Positions 22,544 through 35,298 of a stretch of DNA of 64,000 bases are shown in pieces. This DNA comes from Flavobacteriales bacterium (GTDB lineage Bacteria > Bacteroidota > Bacteroidia > JANQJC01), in assembly GCA_028281825.1 (NCBI GenBank), contig JANQJC010000078.1:1602-65601 (forward strand). Direction: 5' to 3'. Each line of letters starts with the position of its first letter. Position 1 is the first letter of the stretch. A model generated the notes under the pieces. The model had not been told where the DNA came from. It made no database searches and was given only the letters and a program-made list of their open reading frames with translations. The translations under genes and the position numbers were made by a program.

Positions 22544-22690
22544 ATGAAACCATCCAAAGAAGCTGAAAGGATAGTTAAAGTAGCGAATGAGAAATTAGCG
22601 AGTATTAGAGAAAGTAGAGAGAATAATAATTCTGATAACTCTAATAAGTCGAGGGCTTCTTATACGACGGCTATTCGTGGAAGCTTCTAG
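22544..22690 (+). CDS. Small 48-aa protein, candidate antitoxin; start refined to ATG 22544
   Basis: Charged helical ORF downstream of a TATTTTTG promoter motif; overlaps the next gene by 14 nt. Confidence 0.5.
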   Translation: MKPSKEAERIVKVANEKLASIRESRENNNSDNSNKSRASYTTAIRGSF

Positions 22691-23306
22691 TGCTCCCACC
22701 TTATTTATTGTTGCAGGCCCAAACGGTGCAGGAAAAACTTCCCTAAGCAACGATATATTAAAAAAACACAAAGTTGAAGCTTTTGATTGGGATTTTGAAT
22801 ATGACCAATTTTGGGCCGAATTTAACTATGATTCTGACAGGACTATCAAGGAGAGTGCTAGGGAAAGGGCTACAGAGAAGTTTATTTCATTATATCACGC
22901 AGCTTTAAAGGAAAAAAGAAATTTTGCCTTTGAAGCAAACTTTCATTTAAAAGAGCATGTTGATTGGGCACAGAAGGCTAAACAAGCTGGTCATCACATT
23001 GTGCTCATATTCATGTACATGAAAAGTGTGGAGCTATGCATTGAAAGGGTAGTCGAAAGAGTAAAGTATGGAGGTCATCATGTAGAGGAGTTAGACATCA
23101 GAAAAAGGTATTCGAAAGGGCTTCAACATCTAAATGAATACTTCTCGATTTTTGATAATGTAATCATTTTTGATGCGTCATTAACATGGGAGATTGCCAT
23201 CATTGCGGAATTTAACAAGGGAAAACCAAATTATAAATCAAATAAAAGACTGAAAGAGAATGGAGGATTGCTTGAACTCCCAAGTCTTAGGTTGACTATG
23301 AGTTAA
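22677..23306 (+). CDS. Zeta-toxin family / P-loop kinase (predicted ATPase)
   Basis: IVAGPNGAGKTS Walker A, FAFE, and RVVERVKYGGHHV...IRKRY motifs. Confidence 0.85.
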   Translation: MEASSAPTLFIVAGPNGAGKTSLSNDILKKHKVEAFDWDFEYDQFWAEFNYDSDRTIKESARERATEKFISLYHAALKEKRNFAFEANFHLKEHVDWAQKAKQAGHHIVLIFMYMKSVELCIERVVERVKYGGHHVEELDIRKRYSKGLQHLNEYFSIFDNVIIFDASLTWEIAIIAEFNKGKPNYKSNKRLKENGGLLELPSLRLTMS

Positions 23307-23308
23307 TT

Positions 23309-23770
23309 TTACTCCAAAGTGATAGGCCTTTTAATACTTTCCTCTAAAGAGATAATGGTTTCTGTGCTATGCACACCATCTATATCCTGGATGTCTTCAT
23401 TTAGTACATCGCGGAGATGCTGGGTATTGCGGCAAACTATCTTTAAGAAGATGCTGTATTTACCAGTAGTGTAATAGGCCTCCACCACTTCGGGGATGTA
23501 TTCCAGTTTTTTGATAACGTCATTATACACGGAGCCTTTTTCCAAGAAAACACCAATAAAAGCGGAGACATCCATACCCAACTTATGGGCATTTACTGTC
23601 AGCGTGGAGCCTTCCACAATGCCGCTTTCTTTCAATTTATTCATCCTCACATGGATGGTTCCAGGAGAAACAACCACTTTTTTGGCCACTTCAGTGTATG
23701 GAATCATGGCGTTTTCCATTAAAATGGATAAAATCTCCCTATCTACCTTATCAATCTGATAATTTTCCAT
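23309..23770 (-). CDS. Lrp/AsnC family transcriptional regulator; start refined to ATG 23770
   Basis: IDKVDREIL...PYTEVAKKVVVSPGTIHVRMNKL HTH; TTGKYSIF..IVCRN RAM domain; close to the AsnC pattern. Confidence 0.93.
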   Translation of the reverse strand: MENYQIDKVDREILSILMENAMIPYTEVAKKVVVSPGTIHVRMNKLKESGIVEGSTLTVNAHKLGMDVSAFIGVFLEKGSVYNDVIKKLEYIPEVVEAYYTTGKYSIFLKIVCRNTQHLRDVLNEDIQDIDGVHSTETIISLEESIKRPITLE

Positions 23771-23857
23771 GTGTTTTATTGAATAAAATTGAATTATATA
23801 CAAATAAAGGAATTAATATTATGATAATAATAAAAATTATCTGTAAATATTGAATTA

Positions 23858-23889
23858 TTTGTAAAGAAAGGTGTATATCCTTACATTTG
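23858..23889 (+). promoter_or_regulatory. Consensus Bacteroidota sigma-A promoter driving the ncRNA unit
   Basis: TTTG (23858-23861), 20-nt spacer, TACATTTG (23882-23889). Confidence 0.85.
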
Positions 23890-23922
23890 TATCACGTTCT
23901 TTTTAAATAAAGTATTGGTTAT

Positions 23923-23987
23923 GCCCGACCTGGGATGGTTTGCATTAAATGGGGTACATTTTGCAAGCTATTTCCAGCGTCAGGTGC
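23923..23987 (+). ncRNA. Rod-like hairpin RNA upstream of the tRNA-like element
   Basis: Near-continuous pairing: GAC/GTC, CTGGGATGGTTTGCA/TGCAAGCTATTTCCAG (G-U pairs, one bulge) and AAATG/CATTT closing a GGGTA loop. Confidence 0.55.
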
Positions 23988-24022
23988 AAAAAATGAGGGA
24001 CAATTAGCAAAAATTGGAATAC

Positions 24023-24154
24023 TGTGGGGTGATGAAACCGGTCTGAATGACCATGGCAGACATGCCGCCCTGTCCCGGTGGTGGAGAGTACGGGATAAAG
24101 TGCGAGACAACTGCACCCAACCGCTCCGTGAAGGTTCGAATCCTTCCCCTACAG
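24023..24154 (+). tRNA. Atypical tRNA-Asp(GUC)-like RNA, 132 nt
   Basis: Acceptor TGTGGGG/CCCTACA with G73; D-stem ATG/CAT with GG in the loop; anticodon stem CCGCC/GGTGG with loop CTGTCCC (GTC at 24072-24074); T-arm GAAGG-TTCGAAT-CCTTC; 48-nt variable region; no encoded CCA. Confidence 0.8.
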
Positions 24155-24158
24155 CTAG

Positions 24159-24193
24159 AAGCCCCCTTACCGAATTGGTGAGGGGGCTTTTTT
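24159..24193 (+). terminator. Intrinsic terminator of the ncRNA unit
   Basis: AAGCCCCCTTACC-GAATT-GGTGAGGGGGCTT stem followed by a T-run. Confidence 0.88.
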
Positions 24194-24210
24194 ATTACAT
24201 TTACTCCATT

Positions 24211-24705
24211 ATGTTGATATTTCTCGTTACCTACATACAGGTTAATATAATACTGGGAATATTTCTTGGGATATACTACTGGGTAAAGGGCGATGGCCCT
24301 ACAGATTGGGCTAGCAGAATTTTATTGGTTCTTTTTCCCGTTTATGGATGGGGTAATTGGGTGTACAAGCGGGAAACCAAACTTGGAGGAATTCAATCCA
24401 ACAAACTGAAGGATGCTAAAATCATGATTAGGTTTGGTGTAGTGAATGGTTTTGCAATATTCTTTAGCCTACCTGCATTGATGAGAGCAATGGCCCTTGG
24501 GGGAATAGAAGACCATGCAGACAATTCAGGAGAATGGCTATTTAATGCAGGGTTTAATTTAGGTGGCATGCTTGTTAGCGGTTTTACAGGGTTACTATTG
24601 GCGGGTTTTTTATACACTGTCTTTTGCTGGGCACCTATTATTATTGGGCTGATAAGACAATCATCGGTTTATAAAAACTCGAACAGAGATAAGGCTTCTA
24701 GTTAG
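24211..24705 (+). CDS. Hypothetical membrane protein; start refined to ATG 24211
   Basis: Hydrophobic segments begin at 24211. The track's 23935 start runs through the RNA gene and its terminator. Confidence 0.65.
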   Translation: MLIFLVTYIQVNIILGIFLGIYYWVKGDGPTDWASRILLVLFPVYGWGNWVYKRETKLGGIQSNKLKDAKIMIRFGVVNGFAIFFSLPALMRAMALGGIEDHADNSGEWLFNAGFNLGGMLVSGFTGLLLAGFLYTVFCWAPIIIGLIRQSSVYKNSNRDKASS

Positions 24706-24719
24706 AAATCTGATATAGA

Positions 24720-25193
24720 ATGGAAAAACATTTCTGGGTTTTATTCATTGTGGCAACAGTGGCCAATGGGCTGATATTCAAATTCCGTTCAAGAAAATAT
24801 ATCAAGGAGAATCCAGAACTTAAAGATGGCTATGATATTCTCTTTAAAGGTTGGATATTTTACGGCAATATACCTTGGGTGATAATGGGTATTGGGGTAA
24901 TGACAGGAATGGTGGAAAGTGTGTTTGAGTTTTTCGATATAGGTGGACTGAAGCCTATTGTAGTTCTGTTTTACCTTTCAGTTGTCGTTTTGTGGATACT
25001 AGGTTCACGTTGGATATATTTTAGGGGCGGAGCAGAGATGCTATCAAAACATCCAGGATTTTTAACCGTCGGTTTCTCCGCAGTTAAAATATCTCCATTT
25101 TGGGTTAAAGCACTTTGGACTCTTATGTTGGTATCAGGAATTTTTGGTTTCACGATGATGCTGATGGGGCAACTTGGATTTTTTGCACAATAA
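24720..25193 (+). CDS. Hypothetical membrane protein (about 4 TM)
   Basis: 157-aa ORF with four hydrophobic segments. Confidence 0.7.
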   Translation: MEKHFWVLFIVATVANGLIFKFRSRKYIKENPELKDGYDILFKGWIFYGNIPWVIMGIGVMTGMVESVFEFFDIGGLKPIVVLFYLSVVVLWILGSRWIYFRGGAEMLSKHPGFLTVGFSAVKISPFWVKALWTLMLVSGIFGFTMMLMGQLGFFAQ

Positions 25194-25251: not shown

Positions 25252-28200
25252 ATGTCCAGATACCAGCTATTTATTAGTTTCAGCTTAATCATTTCGCTGT
25301 TTGCAGCTATTGCCATTAATCCTAATCCAAGGCCGCTACCTCCCAAGCCATGGCCCATAGGGGATGACTACGACAAAGAATGGAAAACTGTGGACTCCCT
25401 TGCGAAAAAGGGGTTGAATAAGTCTGCCCTTGAGTTGGTGGATGCGCTTTATGAAAAGGCGTTGAAAGATGAGAATGCCGCGCAGCAGGTAAAAGCACTT
25501 ATCCACAAGGTGAAGTTTGCGAGTTTTATGGAAGAAGACGCCCTACTGAAAAGCATGGCTGAACTGGAGGATGAAGCCAGGGTGAGTACGTTTCCGGCCA
25601 AGCCTATTTTGCATAGTATGCTGGCGCAAATGTATTGGCAGTACTACCAGAACAACCGCTGGCGTTTTATGGACCGCAGTGAGACGGTGAACTTTAAAAA
25701 TGAGGATGTAGCTACCTGGACATTGGAGCACCTGGTGCGCAGGGTGGATGAGCATTATCAGGCCTCTTTACAACCAGGAGATAGTTTGATGGGTGTGAGG
25801 TTGGATGTGTTTGATGCGGTATTGCAACATGGTGAGCATACCCGCAGCTTGAGATCAACGCTGTATGATTTTTTGGCGCACAGGGCAATAGATTTTTACA
25901 TGAATACCGAGCCCCAGATTACTCGGCCAGCTTATAAGTTTGAAGTAGAAGGCAAGGAATATTTTGCTCCTGCCCGGGAGTTTATTGACTTAAAGATTAC
26001 GACCAAGGATACGGCATCACTCAAGTACAAAGGCTTGATAGTACTACAGGGTTTGATAAAGTTCCAGCTGAATGGGCCGCCGTGGGGTGAACCTACGCAG
26101 CAAAAAACTGCAGCCCCCTTATTTGACGCCGACCTGAAACGCCTGGACTTGGTTCGCGCAAGTAGTATTGAGACAGATAAGGATACTTTGTATTTCGATG
26201 CCTTGCTTACGATGGAGAAAAAACACCCGAGCGACACGGCTACCGCGCAGGTATCATACCACGTAGCACAATGGCTAAATGCCATGGGCAATAACTACCG
26301 CAAGGAAAATGAAGACGACCCTAATCGCTGGAAGGTGAAGGAAGCCTATGAAAAATGCGAAGCCACGATTAAGAAATATCCAGGCACTTTTGGTGCAGCT
26401 AATTGTGAGTCGCTGATGTCTGCCATTGCGCAAAGAAGCCTGCATTTTACTATGGAAAACTGCAATGTGGCTGATAAGCCATTCCGTAGTTTATTGAATT
26501 ACAGAAACCCTGCTGATGAAGCTGGCGGCACTAAAGAGATATCCATCAGGGTGGGCAGACTTGATTATGAGGAATACAAGGAGAATCGCCGTAAGTATTA
26601 TGGTGATGAGTTGCATGAGTACCTGGTGAAAAGCTCAAAGGAAACCAGTTCATATAGCATTAGCGTGGAGGACGCGGGGGATTTTCAGTCGCATAGTACA
26701 GAGTTTAAAGTTCCAGCGCAAACGCCGGGCCTGTATATCATTTCGGCAAGTGTAGATAAAGAGACTCCCATTGCTTTTGGGATAACTTCAGTTTCAAACA
26801 TAGCTTACATACATAGAAGCAATGCAGGGAACCAACAATTTTTAGTAGCCCACAGAAAGGATGGCCAGCCACTGGAAGGGGTGGACGCCCAGGTGTGGGA
26901 AGAAGTGTATGACTACAAAGACCGCGAATATAAGCTCAAGAAAGGCGGTAAGTACAACACGGATAAGGATGGACAATTTACCATCAAGGGAGGTTCAAGC
27001 AGCCGCAATTTTATGGTGGAGTTCACCTATAAAGATGACCGCCTTTTTAGCGATAACTCGTTTTATGCATACAAGTATAGAGACGGTAAGATATACCGTA
27101 CGGAAAAGACCCATTTCTTCACGGACAGGTCTATATACAGGCCAGGGCAAACAGTACATTTTAAGGGTATCATGTTGGACGTATATGGCGAGGAAGTGAA
27201 GATAAAGCCCAACACCAAGACCAAGGTGATGTTTTATGATGCCAATTACCAAAAGGTGCATGAGTTGGATTTGACCAGCAATGAGTATGGAACTTTCAGC
27301 GGGACTTTCACGGCCCCTGTTGGGGTGCTTAACGGACAAATGCATATCGGCAATAACAGCGGTAATGTGTATTTCTCGGTGGAAGAGTATAAGCGACCTA
27401 AGTTTGAGGTAGACTTTAAGCCAATAGCCGGGAGCTATAAGCTAGGTGAGGAAGTAGAAGTGACTGGCCTTGCCAAGGCCTATGCAGGCAATAATATTGA
27501 TGATGCCGAAGTGAAATACAGGGTGGTCAGAAAAGCCTATTTCCCTTATCCGTGGTATTTCAGGGGATGGTACCCACAAACCAATGCGATGGAAATAAGT
27601 CATGGCATCGCCAAGACGGATGAGAATGGGGAGTTTAAAATTACTTTTGAAGCGATACCAGATAAGAGCCTGTCGCCTAAGTATAAACCTTCATTCCATT
27701 ATACCATTTATGCTGATGTGACGGACATCAATGAAGAAACAAGAAGTGGGGAAACATCGGTTAAGATAGGATATACTGCATTGGAGGTTGGCAGCAATGT
27801 GCCTGGAGAAATTAATAGGGAGGAAGAGCAAAAGTATGAGATAAATACCACCAATCTTGCTGGTGAGTTTGAGCCTGCGAAAGGCAACGTAAAGATTTAT
27901 CCATTGAAGGCTCCTGACCGAGTTTTGAGGGCGAGGAAGTGGTCAAAGCCTGACCAATTTATCCTGAATGAGGAAGAGTATCACAAGAATTTTCCGAATG
28001 ATGTGTATAAAGATGAGAACGAATTTGCGAGTTGGGAGAAACAAGCCCCCATTTATGATAAGGCTTTTGATACCAAGAAGGATAAAGCACTTGACTTGAA
28101 AAAGCTGAAGAGCGCTGCACAAGGGGTGTATTTAATAGAGATAAGCTCAAAAGATAAGTATGGCACCGAGGTGAAAAACCAGAGTTATTTCACGCTGTAC

Positions 28201-31200
28201 TCGCCCAAAGAAAAAACAGTTCCATACACCAACTCAAAGTGGTTTACCCTGCTGCAAGACAAAGCCGAACCAGGTGATGAAGTCTCCTTCCTGATAGGGT
28301 CGTCATATAAGGATGTGAAGGTACTGTATGAAATTGAGGAGCATTTATCCAACAATAGGGCGAACGAAATAACCAGTAGCAAGTGGCTGGATATCAACAA
28401 TGAGCAGAAGCTGATAAAGATACCCGTTGAGGAACAGCACAGGGGCAACTTTATGATACATCTCGCTTTCTTTAAGAATAATGAGGTGTTTCATTTCAGC
28501 AGGGTGATAACCGTTCCAAGGACGAATAAGGAGCTGGATATCGAATTCATGACCTTCCGCAATAAGCTACAGCCTGGGGAGAAAGAGGAATGGAAATTGA
28601 AAGTAAAAGGAAAAAATGGAGAGAAAGTAGCGGCTGAAATGGTGGCAACATTATACGATGCATCATTAGATGCATTTAAGGCTCATTACTGGGGCTTAAA
28701 CATTTATAACAACTACTACGCGCAAATAAAGTGGCAACACGACAATAAGTTTGGTACGGCGAACTCACAAGCGTTGAGGTCTGATTGGTTTGGTAAGAGC
28801 AAGCCAGGTAAAAACAGGAGGTATGAAGAGTTGAACTGGTTTGGTTATTACTTCTATGACAATTACTATAGTTATAGGTCAAGAGGTGTTGCTGAACCAA
28901 CAATAATGGCTGATATGGCAATGCCAGTTGAAGAAATGGAAGTAGCGGAGGGCAGGGCTATGGTGACTGCAAAAGCAGAGAAGGCAAAGGCACAGTCAGC
29001 AAGGATGAAAAGTGCTGAGCAAGAGCGAGTGGCAGATGCCTTAGACGGATGGGCCGAGGATGATATGTTGAACGCTGACAGCAATGCGCAAGGTATAGTT
29101 GCGGAGATAGGTGGAAAAGATAAGCCAGACTTATCAGCAGTTCAGGCGCGGACTAACTTTAATGAGACGGCGTTTTTCTATCCTCATTTGGAAACCGATG
29201 AGGAGGGGAACATCCTGATTAACTTCACCATACCCGAGGCTTTGACCAAATGGAAAATGATGGGCTTGAGCCATACCAAGGATTTGAGCTTTGGGGTGAC
29301 CCAAAATGAATTGGTGACCCAAAAAGAGTTGATGGTGATACCTAATACACCACGCTTTTTAAGGGAAAATGATAAGATTACTTTTTCAGCCAAGGTGTCT
29401 AACATTTCGGATAAGGATTTGAGTGGCACTGCGCAGTTGTTCTTATTTGATGCGGTTACCTATCAACCTATTGATGCCGAGTTGGCAAATACCAATGCGC
29501 AAAAGGGCTTTACTGTTGAGGGGAGTAAGAGCACCTCCGTGAGTTGGGAATTGAAGATACCAGAAGGCATCGGTGCGGTAACTTATAGGGTTGTTGCAAA
29601 AGCCGGTAATTTCTCTGACGGAGAGGAAATGGCATTGCCTGTGCTTACCAATAGGATGCTGGTAACCGAAACCTTGCCACTGCCAATCAGAGGGAGCGGG
29701 GAGAAGCAATTCACCTTTACCAAGTTGAAGGAGAATAAATCTACAACGTTGAGTCATCATAGGTTGACGGTGGAGTTTACTCCTAACTCAGCATGGTATG
29801 CGGTGCAAGCATTGCCTTACCTGATGGAATACCCTTATGAGTGCTCGGAACAGGTGTTTAGCCGTTATTATGCCAATAGCCTGGCTACACATATAGCCAA
29901 TTCTGACCCGAAGATACAGCGAGTTTTCGAGGCGTGGAAAAGAGATGCGGAGACCAATAAAGAGTCTACGTTGTTCTCTAATTTGGAGAGGAACCAGGAA
30001 TTGAAATCATTGCTGTTGGAAGAAACGCCCTGGGTGATGGATGCCAAGAATGAGAGCGAGCGCAAGCGCAGGCTGGCACTATTATTTGACCTGAATAAGA
30101 TGAGCAGGGAGTTGGACAAGGCACTGAGGAAATTGGAGAAGGTGCAATCGCCGAATGGTGGGTGGCCCTGGTTTAAAGGCATGCCTGACAATCGCTACAT
30201 CACACAGCATATTGCTACTGGCATGGGGCATTTGTATAAGCTGGGCGTGGGCGATGTGAAAAGCGACAAAAGCCAATGGCGCATGTTGGAAAAGGCGGTG
30301 AGATATTTGGATGAACGAGTTGCGGAAGATTATGAGCGCCTGAAAAAGATAAAAAATATAGACCTGAAAAAGGACCACATTAGCCAGATACAGATACAGT
30401 ATTTATATATGAGGAGCTTCTTTAAAGATGACTTTAAGCTACCTAACTCAAGCAAGGAAGCGTTTGATTATTACAAGGGGCAGGCGGAAAAGTATTGGCT
30501 GGACAAAGGTCGATACATGCAAGGAATGATTTCCCTGGCCTTGAATAGGTATGAGAGCAAGGTAGTGCCGCAGGATATCATTAAGTCTTTGAAGGAGAAC
30601 TCCATCAACCATGAGGAGTTGGGGATGTATTGGAAAGATATGATGGGCGGCTATTACTGGTACCAGGCTCCTATTGAGACACAAGCACTGCTGATAGAGG
30701 CTTTCCATGAAGTAGCCAATGATGAAAAAAGTGTTGATGACATGAGGGTGTGGTTACTGAAGCAAAAGCAAACACAGGATTGGAAAACCACCAAGGCCAC
30801 TGCCGAGGCTTGCTATGCCTTGCTGCTGGAAGGAACGGAATGGTTGGATGATGAGCCTTCAGTAGAGATATACCTGGGGGATTACAAAATATATAACCAG
30901 AACCCAACCAGGGGTATCAAGCAAGGTGAGATGTATGTGGGAAGCGAGGCAGGCACAGGCTACTTTAAAATGGCTTTGGATGGCGACGAGGTAAAGAATG
31001 ATATGGGCAATATCAAAGTGAAAAAGGATAATGAGGATGTTTCATGGGGAGCGGTGTATTGGCAGTATTTTGAGCAGTTGGATAAGATAACACCGGCTGA
31101 GACGCCATTGAGCTTGAAGAAGGAGGTGTTTGTGGAACGCTTGACGGATAAAGGCCCTGTGATAGAGCCAATCAAGAATGGTGATAAGCTGAAGGTGGGT

Positions 31201-31524
31201 GATAAGCTGAAGATAAGAATAGAGTTGCGTGTAGACAGGGCAATGGAGTATGTGCAGATGAAGGACATGCGAGCCTCTGGTTTTGAGCCGATGAATGTGT
31301 TGAGCCAATACAAATACCAGGATGGCTTGGGTTATTATGAAAGCACCCGCGATGCTGCCACCAATTTCTTTTTTGACTATTTACCGCGTGGCACTTATGT
31401 ATTTGAGTACCCATTAAGGGTGAGCCATAAAGGAGATTTCTCGAATGGTATTACCAGTATCCAATGTATGTATGCGCCTGAATTTGCTTCACATTCAGAA
31501 GGGATAAGGGTGAAGGTGGAGTAG
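25252..31524 (+). CDS. Bacterial alpha-2-macroglobulin (MG2 domain) family protein
   Basis: FTDRSIYRPGQ MG2 motif, F.ETAFFYPHL, thioester motif YPYECSEQ (29842-29853), C-terminal MYAPEF. Confidence 0.95.
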   Translation: MSRYQLFISFSLIISLFAAIAINPNPRPLPPKPWPIGDDYDKEWKTVDSLAKKGLNKSALELVDALYEKALKDENAAQQVKALIHKVKFASFMEEDALLKSMAELEDEARVSTFPAKPILHSMLAQMYWQYYQNNRWRFMDRSETVNFKNEDVATWTLEHLVRRVDEHYQASLQPGDSLMGVRLDVFDAVLQHGEHTRSLRSTLYDFLAHRAIDFYMNTEPQITRPAYKFEVEGKEYFAPAREFIDLKITTKDTASLKYKGLIVLQGLIKFQLNGPPWGEPTQQKTAAPLFDADLKRLDLVRASSIETDKDTLYFDALLTMEKKHPSDTATAQVSYHVAQWLNAMGNNYRKENEDDPNRWKVKEAYEKCEATIKKYPGTFGAANCESLMSAIAQRSLHFTMENCNVADKPFRSLLNYRNPADEAGGTKEISIRVGRLDYEEYKENRRKYYGDELHEYLVKSSKETSSYSISVEDAGDFQSHSTEFKVPAQTPGLYIISASVDKETPIAFGITSVSNIAYIHRSNAGNQQFLVAHRKDGQPLEGVDAQVWEEVYDYKDREYKLKKGGKYNTDKDGQFTIKGGSSSRNFMVEFTYKDDRLFSDNSFYAYKYRDGKIYRTEKTHFFTDRSIYRPGQTVHFKGIMLDVYGEEVKIKPNTKTKVMFYDANYQKVHELDLTSNEYGTFSGTFTAPVGVLNGQMHIGNNSGNVYFSVEEYKRPKFEVDFKPIAGSYKLGEEVEVTGLAKAYAGNNIDDAEVKYRVVRKAYFPYPWYFRGWYPQTNAMEISHGIAKTDENGEFKITFEAIPDKSLSPKYKPSFHYTIYADVTDINEETRSGETSVKIGYTALEVGSNVPGEINREEEQKYEINTTNLAGEFEPAKGNVKIYPLKAPDRVLRARKWSKPDQFILNEEEYHKNFPNDVYKDENEFASWEKQAPIYDKAFDTKKDKALDLKKLKSAAQGVYLIEISSKDKYGTEVKNQSYFTLYSPKEKTVPYTNSKWFTLLQDKAEPGDEVSFLIGSSYKDVKVLYEIEEHLSNNRANEITSSKWLDINNEQKLIKIPVEEQHRGNFMIHLAFFKNNEVFHFSRVITVPRTNKELDIEFMTFRNKLQPGEKEEWKLKVKGKNGEKVAAEMVATLYDASLDAFKAHYWGLNIYNNYYAQIKWQHDNKFGTANSQALRSDWFGKSKPGKNRRYEELNWFGYYFYDNYYSYRSRGVAEPTIMADMAMPVEEMEVAEGRAMVTAKAEKAKAQSARMKSAEQERVADALDGWAEDDMLNADSNAQGIVAEIGGKDKPDLSAVQARTNFNETAFFYPHLETDEEGNILINFTIPEALTKWKMMGLSHTKDLSFGVTQNELVTQKELMVIPNTPRFLRENDKITFSAKVSNISDKDLSGTAQLFLFDAVTYQPIDAELANTNAQKGFTVEGSKSTSVSWELKIPEGIGAVTYRVVAKAGNFSDGEEMALPVLTNRMLVTETLPLPIRGSGEKQFTFTKLKENKSTTLSHHRLTVEFTPNSAWYAVQALPYLMEYPYECSEQVFSRYYANSLATHIANSDPKIQRVFEAWKRDAETNKESTLFSNLERNQELKSLLLEETPWVMDAKNESERKRRLALLFDLNKMSRELDKALRKLEKVQSPNGGWPWFKGMPDNRYITQHIATGMGHLYKLGVGDVKSDKSQWRMLEKAVRYLDERVAEDYERLKKIKNIDLKKDHISQIQIQYLYMRSFFKDDFKLPNSSKEAFDYYKGQAEKYWLDKGRYMQGMISLALNRYESKVVPQDIIKSLKENSINHEELGMYWKDMMGGYYWYQAPIETQALLIEAFHEVANDEKSVDDMRVWLLKQKQTQDWKTTKATAEACYALLLEGTEWLDDEPSVEIYLGDYKIYNQNPTRGIKQGEMYVGSEAGTGYFKMALDGDEVKNDMGNIKVKKDNEDVSWGAVYWQYFEQLDKITPAETPLSLKKEVFVERLTDKGPVIEPIKNGDKLKVGDKLKIRIELRVDRAMEYVQMKDMRASGFEPMNVLSQYKYQDGLGYYESTRDAATNFFFDYLPRGTYVFEYPLRVSHKGDFSNGITSIQCMYAPEFASHSEGIRVKVE

Positions 31525-32692: not shown

Positions 32693-33304
32693 TTAAGTCA
32701 TCATTATTACTCCCAGCATTACTGCGCTGCCGAGAAGGAAGCCAGTGTAAACTTGCGCTTGGGTGTGGGCATAAAGCTTGAGGCGGGCAAAGCCTACCAA
32801 GCCTGAAATAAGAATCAGGGTGGTGAGAATATGAATAATAGGTGCCTGAAGGATAAGGATAAGCCCGAGCGTAGTGCCCACTATGCCACCCATACCTATC
32901 ATGTGCACACTTATTTTCCATTTCATGGTGATGAAAAAGGCCACTATTACCAGAAAGGTGGCGCCCAGTAGGAGTAGATAAACCAATTCATCTAATCCGA
33001 GGCTTTTTAGAAAATAGAAGGTTATGCCATAGAACATGACAGTAGAGAACATGGGTAAGCGTCGCTCCTCAATGGTTTCCATTTCATAGCTGTTGATGCG
33101 TCCCATCTTTTTCAAGCGCACAATCAAAGCTATAGGCATCAAAATCATAGAAAAGCATACGATGCCATATATCCATTTTTGCAGCCTGAAGGGGATATCA
33201 TAGACAATATAGGTATCGCTATTGAATAGCACAATGAGCATGTATAGCGGCATCAATAGGGGATGAAACAAGTAAGAAAAGAAGTTGGCTATTTTCTTCT
33301 CCAT
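32693..33304 (-). CDS. PAP2-superfamily-like membrane protein
   Basis: About 6 TM; KISVHM and ARLKLYAHTQAQV motifs. Confidence 0.65.
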   Translation of the reverse strand: MEKKIANFFSYLFHPLLMPLYMLIVLFNSDTYIVYDIPFRLQKWIYGIVCFSMILMPIALIVRLKKMGRINSYEMETIEERRLPMFSTVMFYGITFYFLKSLGLDELVYLLLLGATFLVIVAFFITMKWKISVHMIGMGGIVGTTLGLILILQAPIIHILTTLILISGLVGFARLKLYAHTQAQVYTGFLLGSAVMLGVIMMT

Positions 33305-34131
33305 CAGCCTTTTACCTCGATATTGAAATGGTCGGCATCCATTGCCACGGGAAATTTTTCCCGAAAGCTTTCCAGTAGTGATTTTGAAAGAGTGCTTGTG
33401 TCGGCTCTTTCTACTCTTAATGGGGTTTCGTTGACGTATTTACCGTAGGGGTCAACAACCACGGTACCGCCTAAGTAAGAGATGCCCTTGCCGTCCTGCC
33501 CAATGCGGTTAAGTCCAATTACATAGCATTGGTTTTCAATAGCACGAGCCAGCAAAAGGCTTGCCCATGCGTTGAACCTAGGCTTAGGCCAGTTGGCGAC
33601 ATATATCAGGCAATCATAAACGGGTTCGTTGCCCATTTCAGTGGCCGTGTTTTCATTTTTGAGCGGGGCATTTCTGCTCCACACCGGAAAGCGAAGGTCG
33701 TAGCACACCAGGGGGCAAATGCGCCAGCCTTTCAGTTCAACAATTAAGCGTTTGTTTCCATTGTTGAAGTATTGGTCTTCCTCCGCCATGCGGAAAAGGT
33801 GGCGTTTATCATAATACTCATAAGTACCATCGGGACGCATCCATATTAGGCGATTGTAGTAATTACCATCCTCTTTAATGATAAGGCTACCTGAAATCAC
33901 ACAGTTTTTCTCAACGGCTTTTTGCTTCATCCAGGCTATGGTTTCGCCATTCATTTCTTCGGCTACTTGCGCTGTATTCATGGTGAAGCCCGTACTGAAC
34001 ATTTCAGGCAGCAGGATAAGGTCTGTTGGTTCGGTGATATCTTCCAGAAGCTTATCAAAACCATCCCTGTTTTGTTGGGGGTTTTCCCAATCAAGGCTGG
34101 TTTGGACAGTGGTTATTTTTAAATCGCTCAT
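33304..34131 (-). CDS. yafV: Omega-amidase, nitrilase family (YafV-like)
   Basis: LPEMF (Glu), YDKRHLF (Lys) and VCYDLRFP (Cys) triad motifs; VANWP. Confidence 0.85.
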   Translation of the reverse strand: MSDLKITTVQTSLDWENPQQNRDGFDKLLEDITEPTDLILLPEMFSTGFTMNTAQVAEEMNGETIAWMKQKAVEKNCVISGSLIIKEDGNYYNRLIWMRPDGTYEYYDKRHLFRMAEEDQYFNNGNKRLIVELKGWRICPLVCYDLRFPVWSRNAPLKNENTATEMGNEPVYDCLIYVANWPKPRFNAWASLLLARAIENQCYVIGLNRIGQDGKGISYLGGTVVVDPYGKYVNETPLRVERADTSTLSKSLLESFREKFPVAMDADHFNIEVKG

Positions 34132-34137
34132 AACTAA

Positions 34138-35298
34138 CTATACTTTGCGTAAGAGTTCGGCCGCTTGTTCTAAGGTTTCATAGCCTTTGCAGAAACAAAA
34201 ACGGATGAATTTGTCGTCAATTCCCTCGTGATAGAAAACCGAAATTGGAATAGAAGCGACTTTGGTTTCTTTGGTAAGCCTTACTACAAAATCAGTATCT
34301 TTTTCATCGCTGATGTCCTTATATCTCAATAGCTGAAAATATGTGCCCGCGGATGGGGTGAAAGTAAACCGAGAACCCTCAATACACTTATTGAAGAAGT
34401 CCCTTTTCTCCTGGTAGAATTTGGCTAAATCTGCATACCAATGAAAGGAGTCATTCATAAAGTCGGCAATGGCATGTTGCATAGGGTTATTCACCGTGAA
34501 CACGTTGAACTGGTGCACTTTCCTAAACTCCTCCATCAGGTTTTGAGGCGCCAGGATGTAACCTATTTTCCAGCCTGTATTGTGGAAGGTTTTGCCAAAG
34601 GATGAAACCACGAAACTGCGTTCAGCCAGTTTAGGATATCGGGCTATGCTTTGGTGCTCGTAGCCATCAAAGATGATGTGTTCGTAAACTTCATCGCTAA
34701 TGATAACGATGTCTGTGCCTTTGGTGAGTTTTTCCAATTGCTGCATATCGCCAGCGTTCATAATACTGCCCGTTGGGTTGTGGGGAGTATTGATGATAAT
34801 GGCTTTGGTGCGTCGACTTACCAGTTTTTGTACTTCCTTCCAATTGATATGGTAGTCTGGAGCTTTGAGTTGCACAAATATGGGGATGCCTCCACACAAC
34901 TCGATGGCGGGTACGTAACTATCATAAGCGGGCTCAAATACAATCACTTCATCACCCTCTCGAATCATGGCCGTTAGGGCGGTATAGATGGCTTGGGTGG
35001 CACCAGCAGTAACGTTAATCTCAGTATCGGGGTCGTATTGGGCACTGTATAATCGCTCCACTTTATCTGCAATAGCCTCCCTGAGTTTGGGCACACCCTG
35101 CATGGGGGCATACTGATTGTAGCCATTGCTCATGTAATGATTGGTGCGCTCCTTGATTTTATCAGGACAGTCGAAATCAGGAAACCCCTGCGACAGGTTG
35201 ATGGCCTTTTCTTCATTGGCTAGCTTAGTCATCACCGTAAAAATAGTGGTGCCTGTATCAGGTAATTTAGAGTGTATTATTCCAGGAAATTTTGGCAT
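34138..35298 (-). CDS. ybdL: Methionine aminotransferase (YbdL-like, class I PLP)
   Basis: SKLPDTGTTIFTVM, AINLSQGFPDF, SDEVYEHI and SSFGKTFHNTGWK motifs. Confidence 0.88.
   Translation of the reverse strand: MPKFPGIIHSKLPDTGTTIFTVMTKLANEEKAINLSQGFPDFDCPDKIKERTNHYMSNGYNQYAPMQGVPKLREAIADKVERLYSAQYDPDTEINVTAGATQAIYTALTAMIREGDEVIVFEPAYDSYVPAIELCGGIPIFVQLKAPDYHINWKEVQKLVSRRTKAIIINTPHNPTGSIMNAGDMQQLEKLTKGTDIVIISDEVYEHIIFDGYEHQSIARYPKLAERSFVVSSFGKTFHNTGWKIGYILAPQNLMEEFRKVHQFNVFTVNNPMQHAIADFMNDSFHWYADLAKFYQEKRDFFNKCIEGSRFTFTPSAGTYFQLLRYKDISDEKDTDFVVRLTKETKVASIPISVFYHEGIDDKFIRFCFCKGYETLEQAAELLRKV

Follow-up and report, generated by a model that had tools for sequence, protein, structure and literature searches.

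A tRNA-derived RNA family encoded divergently from asnC in Bacteroidota and carried by phages suggests a link to aspartate and asparagine metabolism

In a 64-kb stretch of DNA from a Flavobacteriales bacterium (64,000 nucleotides [nt] of contig JANQJC010000078.1, hereafter the window), a gene for a transfer RNA (tRNA)-like RNA lies divergent from asnC, which encodes an AsnC-type regulator. The analyses described here firmly place this RNA in a strongly covarying, tRNA-derived RNA family that is missed by standard tools and is monocistronic in bacteria. They establish equally firmly that its divergent pairing with asnC is conserved in one large clade, and that phages carry the RNA independently of asnC. 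No description of a tRNA-like RNA associated with asnC, with GatCAB, or with Bacteroidetes was found in the full-text literature searched, and the tRNA-derived RNA linked to AsnC is real and apparently undescribed. Its features suggest a link, likewise undescribed, between the RNA and aspartate/asparagine metabolism. Coordinates given without a locus name are positions in the window (Table 1), and related loci are designated by L numbers.

Members of the family were collected in two ways. Eighty loci with relatives of the AsnC protein were taken from GTDB genomes, and in 16 of them nhmmer placed the window segment 24018-24156, and no other segment, directly upstream and divergent of asnC. In addition, a strict pattern describing the D-arm and the anticodon arm was scanned across metagenomes and IMG/VR, where it matched at least 120 metagenome contigs and 74 viral contigs, respectively. 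Among the matches listed, 209 copies were full-length (178 unique), of which 139 were bacterial or metagenomic and 70 were viral. When a non-redundant alignment of 99 of these sequences was examined, 98.9% of the cells in paired columns held standard pairs, compared with 50-62% when the partners were slid, and compensatory changes were found at 16 of the 25 pairs; none of 500 shuffles reached any of the observed covariation measures. Because copy extraction demanded 10 of 12 acceptor/T-arm pairs, the values for those two helices are biased, whereas the D, anticodon, and variable-arm helices were under no selection on pairing. A covariance model built from the same alignment gave one match only in the window (Table 1); complete members scored at least 93.6 bits, whereas 30-54 bits were obtained for ordinary genes for tRNA-Leu and tRNA-Asp located in the same loci. 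Fold, covariation, and covariance model together bear out the self-contained tRNA-like gene that a preliminary description of this DNA had proposed, and its anticodon loop is of the Asp type. Many copies also have transcription signals of their own: a promoter box TAn(n)TTTG was found 15-51 nt upstream of 42 of 66 asnC-linked copies and of 12 of 70 viral copies, and a hairpin followed by a T-run within 80 nt downstream of 43 of 66 asnC-linked copies and of 1 of 70 viral copies. Two or three copies stand in tandem in 12 of 107 arrays.

Standard tools passed over most of this family. ARAGORN reported no tRNA or transfer-messenger RNA (tmRNA) gene in the whole window, and Rfam 15 gave no match in the window at gathering scores and, at E≤10, only terminator-like noise with no match to tRNA. 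When L009 and L245 were searched with Rfam at gathering and E-value thresholds, the only match beyond terminator-type noise was an 86-nt phage member, identified as tRNA; the long members in L009 and in the window remained unmatched. Recognition was confined to short copies: the shortest members (86-95 nt, from phages) are called tRNA-Asp(GUC) by ARAGORN, a tRNA-Asp call was obtained for 2 of 139 copies, and one short phage member passes the Rfam tRNA threshold (43.4 bits versus a cut-off of 29). The candidate structured RNA DNAVirus_1850 (PMC10690425), with 27 reports in IMG/VR and an overlap with an ARAGORN tRNA-Asp call at only one site, may be the phage branch of this RNA family; compared by description only, the two are alike in that the present family is also rarely called tRNA-Asp. 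That paper gives no bacterial context, AsnC link, or function.

Folding of 18 sequences with RNAalifold yielded a cloverleaf with a 7-bp acceptor stem, a 3-bp D-stem, a 5- to 6-bp anticodon stem bearing a 7-nt loop, a long variable arm shut by a covarying 4-bp helix, and a T-arm GGUUCGAAUCC. The canonical features of an elongator-tRNA cloverleaf, namely an acceptor stem of 7 bp, the three arms (D, anticodon, and T), and the T-loop GGUUCGAAUCC, are present. The family D-arm, GGUG-NN-GAAAUUGGCAGAC with an 11-nt D-loop, is almost that of bacterial tRNA-Leu, so the family appears to have branched off from class II tRNAs. It shares with class II tRNA-Leu and the Rfam tRNA family RF00005 the D-arm, the long variable arm, the T-arm, and trailers like those of tRNA genes, but it differs in having G73 and U1-A72 instead of A73 and G1-C72, and in a variable arm that reaches 113 nt and contains a conserved internal loop. 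Across the family this arm measures 17-113 nt, and the internal loop, with GAUAAA in its 5′ strand and CUAAC in its 3′ strand, is conserved except in the shortest members; it presumably resembles the UAA/GAN motif. One subgroup has an additional distal AUAAUGGGUUGACCAC element in the variable arm, and the window copy and several relatives carry a small-hairpin insertion in the D-loop (16 nt in the window). A pseudoknot between the anticodon loop and the D-loop (AGAC/GUCU) was considered and rejected, as the variants in L060 and L064 showed no covariation.

The two ends of the molecule point to different tRNA identities. The anticodon-like loop has the consensus C-N-N-U-C-Y-C and is mostly CUGUCUC, with GUC in the anticodon position (CUGUCUC in 93 and CGGUCUC in 23 of 139 copies; CUGUCCC in the window). 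U35, C36, and C38 were invariant in the 18 asnC-anchored copies and in about 9 copies found by the model only, and all variant anticodons are NUC, matching the GAN (Asp/Glu) codon box. Almost every copy has a pyrimidine at position 37 (C37 in the window), U33 is replaced in about 20% of copies, and two members have the canonical loop CUGUCAC. At the other end, U1-A72 was found in 139 of 139 bacterial/metagenome copies and in 66 of 70 viral copies, and G73 in all 209; the ordinary tRNA-Asp genes of the same loci have G1-C72 instead. C74 is encoded in every copy; the two letters after it are mostly AA, AT, or TA, and few copies encode CCA. The trailers of 295 ordinary tRNA genes in the same loci are similar (CAA 114, CAT 52, CTA 30, CCA 21), an argument for tRNA-like maturation of the RNA. 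Aspartate identity has five strong determinants, G73, G34, U35, C36, and C38 (PMC9976931). Amidation by bacterial GatCAB is promoted by U1-A72 and blocked by G1-C72 and by an extra D-loop base, the antideterminant U20A (PMC1635274); the family has the U1-A72 determinant. Judged by its sequence, then, the RNA is a chimera, combining an anticodon loop of the Asp type with an acceptor end of the Asn/Gln type.

That the partner gene of this RNA encodes an AsnC-type regulator and lies on the minus strand had been stated in the preliminary description, and comparisons with Pfam, NCBIfam, and PDB 2CG4 agree. Pfam found PF13404 (49.2 bits) and PF01037 (72.3 bits) in the protein, and the NCBIfam AsnC equivalog model scored 195.7 bits, below its curated cut-off of 227, with the next family at 88 bits. 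E. coli AsnC (PDB 2CG4) aligned over its full length with 146.7 bits, compared with at most 83 bits for other Lrp-family structures, and the two proteins have in common the N-terminus MENY.ID and the block EAYYTTG.YSIF.K. Because the N-terminus matches that of E. coli AsnC, the start of asnC is the ATG at 23770 (MENYQID...) and not the upstream TTG at 23803 given in the list of open reading frames (ORFs). These sequence comparisons argue strongly for a true AsnC orthologue. In neither the window nor any of the 80 inspected relatives of the locus does asnA or asnB adjoin asnC.

Synteny of asnC and the RNA in relatives, which the preliminary description had set beforehand as its check, was found not only in 16 of the 80 asnC loci but also in metagenomes. 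Among the matches listed, an asnC homologue lay divergent at 85-270 nt from the RNA in 50 of 88 metagenome arrays, these being the pattern-retrieved arrays with at least 650 nt of upstream sequence. The 16 RNA-bearing asnC loci belong to Cyclobacteriaceae, Cytophagaceae, Roseivirga, Ohtaekwangia, unclassified Bacteroidota, and an Ignavibacteria metagenome-assembled genome; the Saprospiraceae, Lewinellaceae, and Clostridium asnC loci among the 80 had no RNA, even by the covariance model. In a neighbor-joining tree the RNA-linked AsnC proteins clustered, and the RNA-less Saprospiria formed a separate clade. The genes further out vary widely: beyond asnC lie about 15 different gene clusters (sufB in about half, and also, among others, aspartyl-tRNA synthetase [AspRS], a 2-oxoacid dehydrogenase E2 subunit, and a GAF protein), and beyond the RNA lie more than 25 different gene clusters, many of them convergent. 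As the pair is maintained while its outer flanks change, it has been kept through neighborhood turnover. In L094 (698-2548) and L097 (10848-12629), the gene directly beyond asnC is a bacterial-type aspS with class II core, GAD, and OB domains, and the order is aspS, asnC, RNA. In the RNA-less Lewinella loci L053 (1229-2998) and L062 (1255-3258), too, an aspS gene is found close to asnC, separated from it by one small ORF; there, a search for a hidden RNA between aspS and asnC, using the covariance model with filters off, returned nothing above 6.4 bits.

To account for these observations, we propose a conserved two-gene module in which AsnC is coupled to an Asp-charged, non-decoding, tRNA-derived RNA; we hold this proposal tentatively, giving it slightly less than an even chance, and amidation is its least certain part. 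AsnC would bind the spacer and make expression of the RNA gene depend on asparagine status, in the way in which E. coli AsnC acts on asnA; such control of the RNA promoter is suggested by the asnC-asnA analogy together with the fixed short spacer. In both systems an orthologous regulator is divergent from its neighbor over a short AT-rich spacer, but the neighbor here is an RNA gene and not asparagine synthetase A. The transcript would be trimmed like a tRNA, by RNase P, 3′ processing, and CCA addition, and AspRS would charge it because it carries G73, G34, U35, C36, and C38. Because position 37 is a pyrimidine, position 33 varies, and the variable arm is huge, the RNA would probably stay off the ribosome and not decode. 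The bound Asp may then be amidated by GatCAB, since the RNA has the U1-A72 pair that bacterial GatCAB requires; we favor this step, although it is the most speculative of the series. With it, the RNA would act away from the ribosome, as a carrier or sensor in the tRNA-dependent formation of Asn. A more ambitious version appears unlikely to us. It would make the RNA a translation-orthogonal cofactor that is loaded with an acidic amino acid by AspRS (by glutamyl-tRNA synthetase for the UUC/CUC variants), amidated by GatCAB, and set in its transcription by AsnC, so that Asn/Gln would be made or sensed off the ribosome.

One of the closest known counterparts of such an RNA is the tRNA-Asn of the indirect pathway, which uses a non-discriminating AspRS and GatCAB (PMC1635274, PMC4206432). 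Both have U1-A72, G73, and a GUN-type loop recognizable by AspRS, and the RNA stands beside asnC in lineages that have been scored gatCAB-positive (PMC4206432). Unlike that tRNA-Asn, the RNA has GUC instead of GUU, a pyrimidine at position 37, a Leu-type D-arm, and a giant variable arm, and it probably does not decode. In Table S1 of PMC4206432, gatCAB is scored 1 for Cyclobacterium, Cytophaga, Belliella, Flexibacter, Marivirga, Spirosoma, Ignavibacterium, and Melioribacter, and 0 for Saprospira grandis, the listed Flavobacteriales, and Bacteroides; the distribution of the RNA beside asnC agrees with this table at the level of lineages only. According to the same table, Melioribacter has neither asnA nor asnB. 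The 64-kb window itself contains no gatCAB gene.

Several observations weigh against the proposed module. The RNA occurs without asnC in 38 of the 88 metagenome arrays and in 74 IMG/VR contigs, so it can work without this regulator. All Cytophagales listed in Table S1 of PMC4206432 have asparaginyl-tRNA synthetase (AsnRS) and asnB, and Cyclobacterium also has asnA; with AsnRS and AsnB already in place, an extra Asn route is not obviously needed. Among the identity elements, position 34 varies (U, C, or A in about 10% of copies, with CUC in the aspS-linked L094 and L097), and G10, another bacterial Asp determinant, is not conserved. U35, C36, and C38 were preset by the search pattern in the metagenome and viral sets, and their invariance is unbiased only in the asnC-anchored and model-only copies. 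The 11-nt Leu-type D-loop, with its 16-nt hairpin in the window, may clash with the D-loop check of GatCAB. Finally, neither a search for gapped palindromes nor a MAFFT consensus of 60-66 spacers produced a defined operator motif. The link to Asp/Asn made in the preliminary description stands only in part: the tRNA-Asn/Gln-type acceptor end and aspS in L094 and L097 speak for it, whereas about 40% of the sampled loci lack asnC, and the asnC genes of Saprospiraceae and Lewinellaceae lack the RNA.

In a rival explanation, the arrangement is an inherited neighborhood without regulation: AsnC would control itself and/or sufBCD (or other genes), and the RNA would be constitutive and merely lie upstream. 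In Cytophagales, sufBCD lies about 87 nt 3′ of the RNA-linked asnC on the same strand and may be the real target; with asnC directly upstream of sufBCD, the RNA need not be the main target of AsnC. The sufB-sufC-sufD genes stand behind asnC in about half of the linked loci, the RNA-linked asnC genes form one tree group so that much of the synteny could go back to one ancestral arrangement, phage copies work without asnC, and the spacers yielded no operator motif. On the other hand, the pair survives repeated change of both outer flanks, including cases without suf, namely the window (kinase and membrane proteins), L001 (dnaE), and L002. The asnC-RNA spacing is also narrow, at 124-181 nt in 60 of 66 homologues (252 nt in the window), and Asn/Asp identity features with a nearby aspS beside an AsnC orthologue would be an odd coincidence if nothing but inheritance were involved. 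We consider this explanation improbable, though it deserves serious attention. The order sufB-sufC-sufD behind asnC was noted in L009 (3995-8062), L015, L022, L025, L029, L033, L060, L064, and about 24 metagenome loci, and an AsnC-type regulator may thus head an iron-sulfur (Fe-S) assembly operon in Cytophagales.

The loci without asnC are mostly phage, as judged by runs of small same-strand ORFs and by genes for terminase, portal, DnaB, exonuclease, and PhoH. Some of them are large tRNA arrays that also hold an ordinary tRNA-Asp (L123, L151, L181). When two phage-type members were compared by blastn with 50,697 GenBank phage records, T-arm matches only were obtained, so that none of these cultured phages carries the RNA, and no conserved partner protein was found among the neighbors in phage contexts. 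The RNA was seen at the edge of arrays of at least 20 tRNA genes, an ordinary tRNA-Asp among them, in L123 (1134-4531), L151 (6033-12943), L181 (214-6776), and L133 (1188-3007), the last of which also carries a phage tmRNA (2619-3007). A minority of the loci without asnC are bacterial. In L117 (5012-7579), L161, and L200, for example, the aspartokinase-homoserine dehydrogenase gene thrA follows 470-740 nt downstream of the RNA, and a NUDIX gene is divergent on the other side of the RNA.

Such phage contexts raise the possibility of a decoy or counter-defence mimic, an imitation of the anticodon arm and acceptor end of GUN-family tRNAs that would soak up or inhibit an anticodon nuclease or some other toxin aimed at tRNAs, with phages protecting translation and bacteria keeping a regulated copy. 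Phage tRNAs that escape host nucleases are known. The RNA is frequent in phage contigs, even inside tRNA arrays that already hold an ordinary tRNA-Asp, Y37 and the variable N33 speak against decoding, and degenerate tandem copies retain only the acceptor/T minihelix. A decoy, however, leaves the conserved AsnC partner and the nearby aspS unexplained, no toxin or nuclease gene is conserved beside the RNA, and mimicry of an anticodon loop does not account for the invariant U1-A72 and G73; we therefore judge it quite unlikely. The degenerate extra copies in tandem arrays were observed in L101 (5374-5536), L111 (986-1092), L145 (4332-4466), and L120 (5845-5957). That in L101 has a CUUCGG-capped helix in place of the anticodon loop, and some others, such as that in L111, are reduced to an acceptor/T-arm minihelix with U1-A72 and G73. 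A further peculiarity of some Cytophagales loci is the palindromic element CCCGATAGNTATCGGG, which resembles a miniature insertion element and lies in or beside RNA genes; of its 8 copies in 5 loci, 7 are inside an RNA gene or within 300 nt of one (Table 1).

We regard as very unlikely the reading that gene finders have overlooked a decoding tRNA-Asp isoacceptor of the ordinary kind or a class II tRNA bearing an unusual insertion. The ARAGORN calls for the 86- to 95-nt members, the 43.4-bit Rfam match, the 3′ trailer, and the two members with the loop CUGUCAC would all fit it. Against it stand the nearly constant pyrimidine at 37, the loss of U33 in about one copy in five, the occurrence of G, U, C, or A at position 34, the contrast between U1-A72 and the G1-C72 of ordinary tRNA-Asp in the same loci, the variable arm of up to 113 nt, and the normal tRNA-Asp also present in phage arrays. 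Precedents for tRNA-shaped RNAs that carry identity elements, are used outside translation or poorly in it, and have metabolic or regulatory roles are the cell-wall tRNA-Gly of Staphylococcus aureus and tRNA-Other of Bacillus cereus; unlike the present family, these are normal-sized and sequence-unrelated, and none is paired with AsnC/Lrp or spread by phages. It is hardly credible that the RNA reports the tRNA-modification or Fe-S state, its UGUC loop being a substrate of the queuosine pathway and its Fe-S enzymes and thereby tied to asnC-sufBCD: queuosine enzymes act on GUN anticodons, most copies have U33-G34-U35, and sufBCD is directly downstream of asnC in many loci, but U33 is missing in about 20% and G34 in about 10% of copies, half of the linked loci have no suf, and no queuosine gene was seen nearby.

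Three other readings were rejected. A leader of asnB was dropped because the divergent gene in relatives, of about 555 amino acids (aa), is not asnB but, by Pfam, an AMP-binding acyl-CoA ligase or an S41 peptidase, and because each copy has its own terminator. A cis-acting leader or T-box-like riboswitch is at odds with the terminator directly after the RNA and with the more than 25 different downstream clusters. A tmRNA was discarded given the lack of an ARAGORN tmRNA call or Rfam match, the full anticodon arm, and a length of only 132 nt.

Table 1. Features of the asnC-RNA locus in the window, with the palindromic element of related loci
Feature	Position	Strand	Evidence or remark
asnC orthologue, 153 aa; AsnC-type helix-turn-helix and RAM/AsnC_trans_reg domains	23309-23770	-	Pfam, NCBIfam, PDB 2CG4 match
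AT-rich divergent control region; presumed asnC promoter, candidate regulator sites	23771-23857		
Bacteroidetes-type promoter; -33 TTTG 23858-23861, 20-nt spacer, -7 TACATTTG 23882-23889	23858-23889	+	Read from sequence
Leader hairpin, lineage-specific insert in the 5′ leader	23921-23988	+	Minimum free energy fold
tRNA-like RNA, 132 nt	24023-24154	+	Covariance model, 98.1 bits, E 2e-30
Acceptor stem, U1-A72; discriminator G at 24154	24023-24029/24147-24153	+	
D-stem; extra small hairpin 24038-24053 in the D-loop	24032-24034/24061-24063	+	
Anticodon stem; loop CUGUCCC 24070-24076, GUC 24072-24074	24065-24069/24077-24081	+	
Variable arm	24083-24127	+	
T-arm	24130-24146	+	
Intrinsic terminator; 12-bp G+C-rich stem 24160-24171/24177-24188, GAAUU loop, U-run to 24193	24160-24193	+	
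CCCGATAGNTATCGGG-element loci	L022 3602-3617; L143 528-897; L189 1557-1730; L192 6059-6074		

In the window, the layout between asnC and the RNA (Table 1) largely agrees with the preliminary description. Direct reading of the sequence supported the promoter, whose arrangement of TTTG, 20 nt, and TACATTTG agrees with the Bacteroidetes -33/-7 consensus; a generic sigma-70 scan of the plus strand did not list it. The strong terminator 3′ of the RNA was likewise recovered, as a stem at 24160-24188 with a T-run. A 311-nt plus-strand stretch folds better than all of its shuffles (z-score -3.5). The spacer 23771-23857, which we infer to be a candidate operator region, is followed by the promoter; the asnC-RNA interval includes the inverted repeat GATAAT-N7-ATTATC (23823-23841), and AT-rich inverted repeats are about twice as frequent as expected from shuffling in 66 homologous spacers. 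The promoter lies 134 nt upstream of the RNA, and this gap contains the leader hairpin. The hairpin RNA claimed earlier does fold at this place but falls outside the conserved module: no similar sequence was found elsewhere in the window or in 274 loci, and with the extra-long spacer this marks it as a local leader insert. With no second copy anywhere searched, the idea of a repeat element was rejected.

The claim that the unit holds no protein gene needs qualification, as a formal 256-aa ORF (23935-24705, plus strand) spans the tRNA-like RNA and the terminator. This ORF was discounted because the RNA is conserved elsewhere without it, and the real gene downstream of the terminator likely starts at the ATG at 24211. 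Two hydrophobic plus-strand ORFs follow the terminator, 24211-24705 (164 aa) and 24720-25193 (157 aa); neither has a Pfam or NCBIfam match or is conserved beside the RNA in other loci. On the other side, a plus-strand ORF resembling zeta-toxin/AAA kinases (22677-23306, P-loop GPNGAGKT) is convergent with asnC and ends 2 nt from its stop. Further along the plus strand, 25252-31524 encodes a 2090-aa bacterial alpha-2-macroglobulin with MG2, bait region, A2M, and bMG10 domains. At 33304-35298 on the minus strand, 9 kb from the RNA, two neighboring genes, one encoding an omega-amidase-like carbon-nitrogen hydrolase and the other a class I/II aminotransferase, are reminiscent of the Gln/Asn transaminase-omega-amidase route.

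Few tRNA-shaped RNAs function outside decoding, and every case known so far has brought new biochemistry to light. The present family is abundant, with one strict pattern matching at least 120 metagenome and 74 viral contigs, and is common to Bacteroidota/Ignavibacteria and phages. An Asp anticodon loop and an amidation-directing acceptor pair beside the classic asparagine regulator make for a testable hypothesis, the outcome of which bears on the persistence of GatCAB in bacteria that have AsnRS. Even if the amidation mechanism is wrong, the family merits an Rfam entry and explains "missing" features in phage tRNA arrays. If the more ambitious version were correct, an RNA gene would occupy the place that asnA has in E. 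coli, the phage copies would be an RNA-type auxiliary metabolic gene, and there would be a reason why some bacteria keep GatCAB alongside AsnRS; were the amidation hypothesis to hold, the mechanism would be categorically new.

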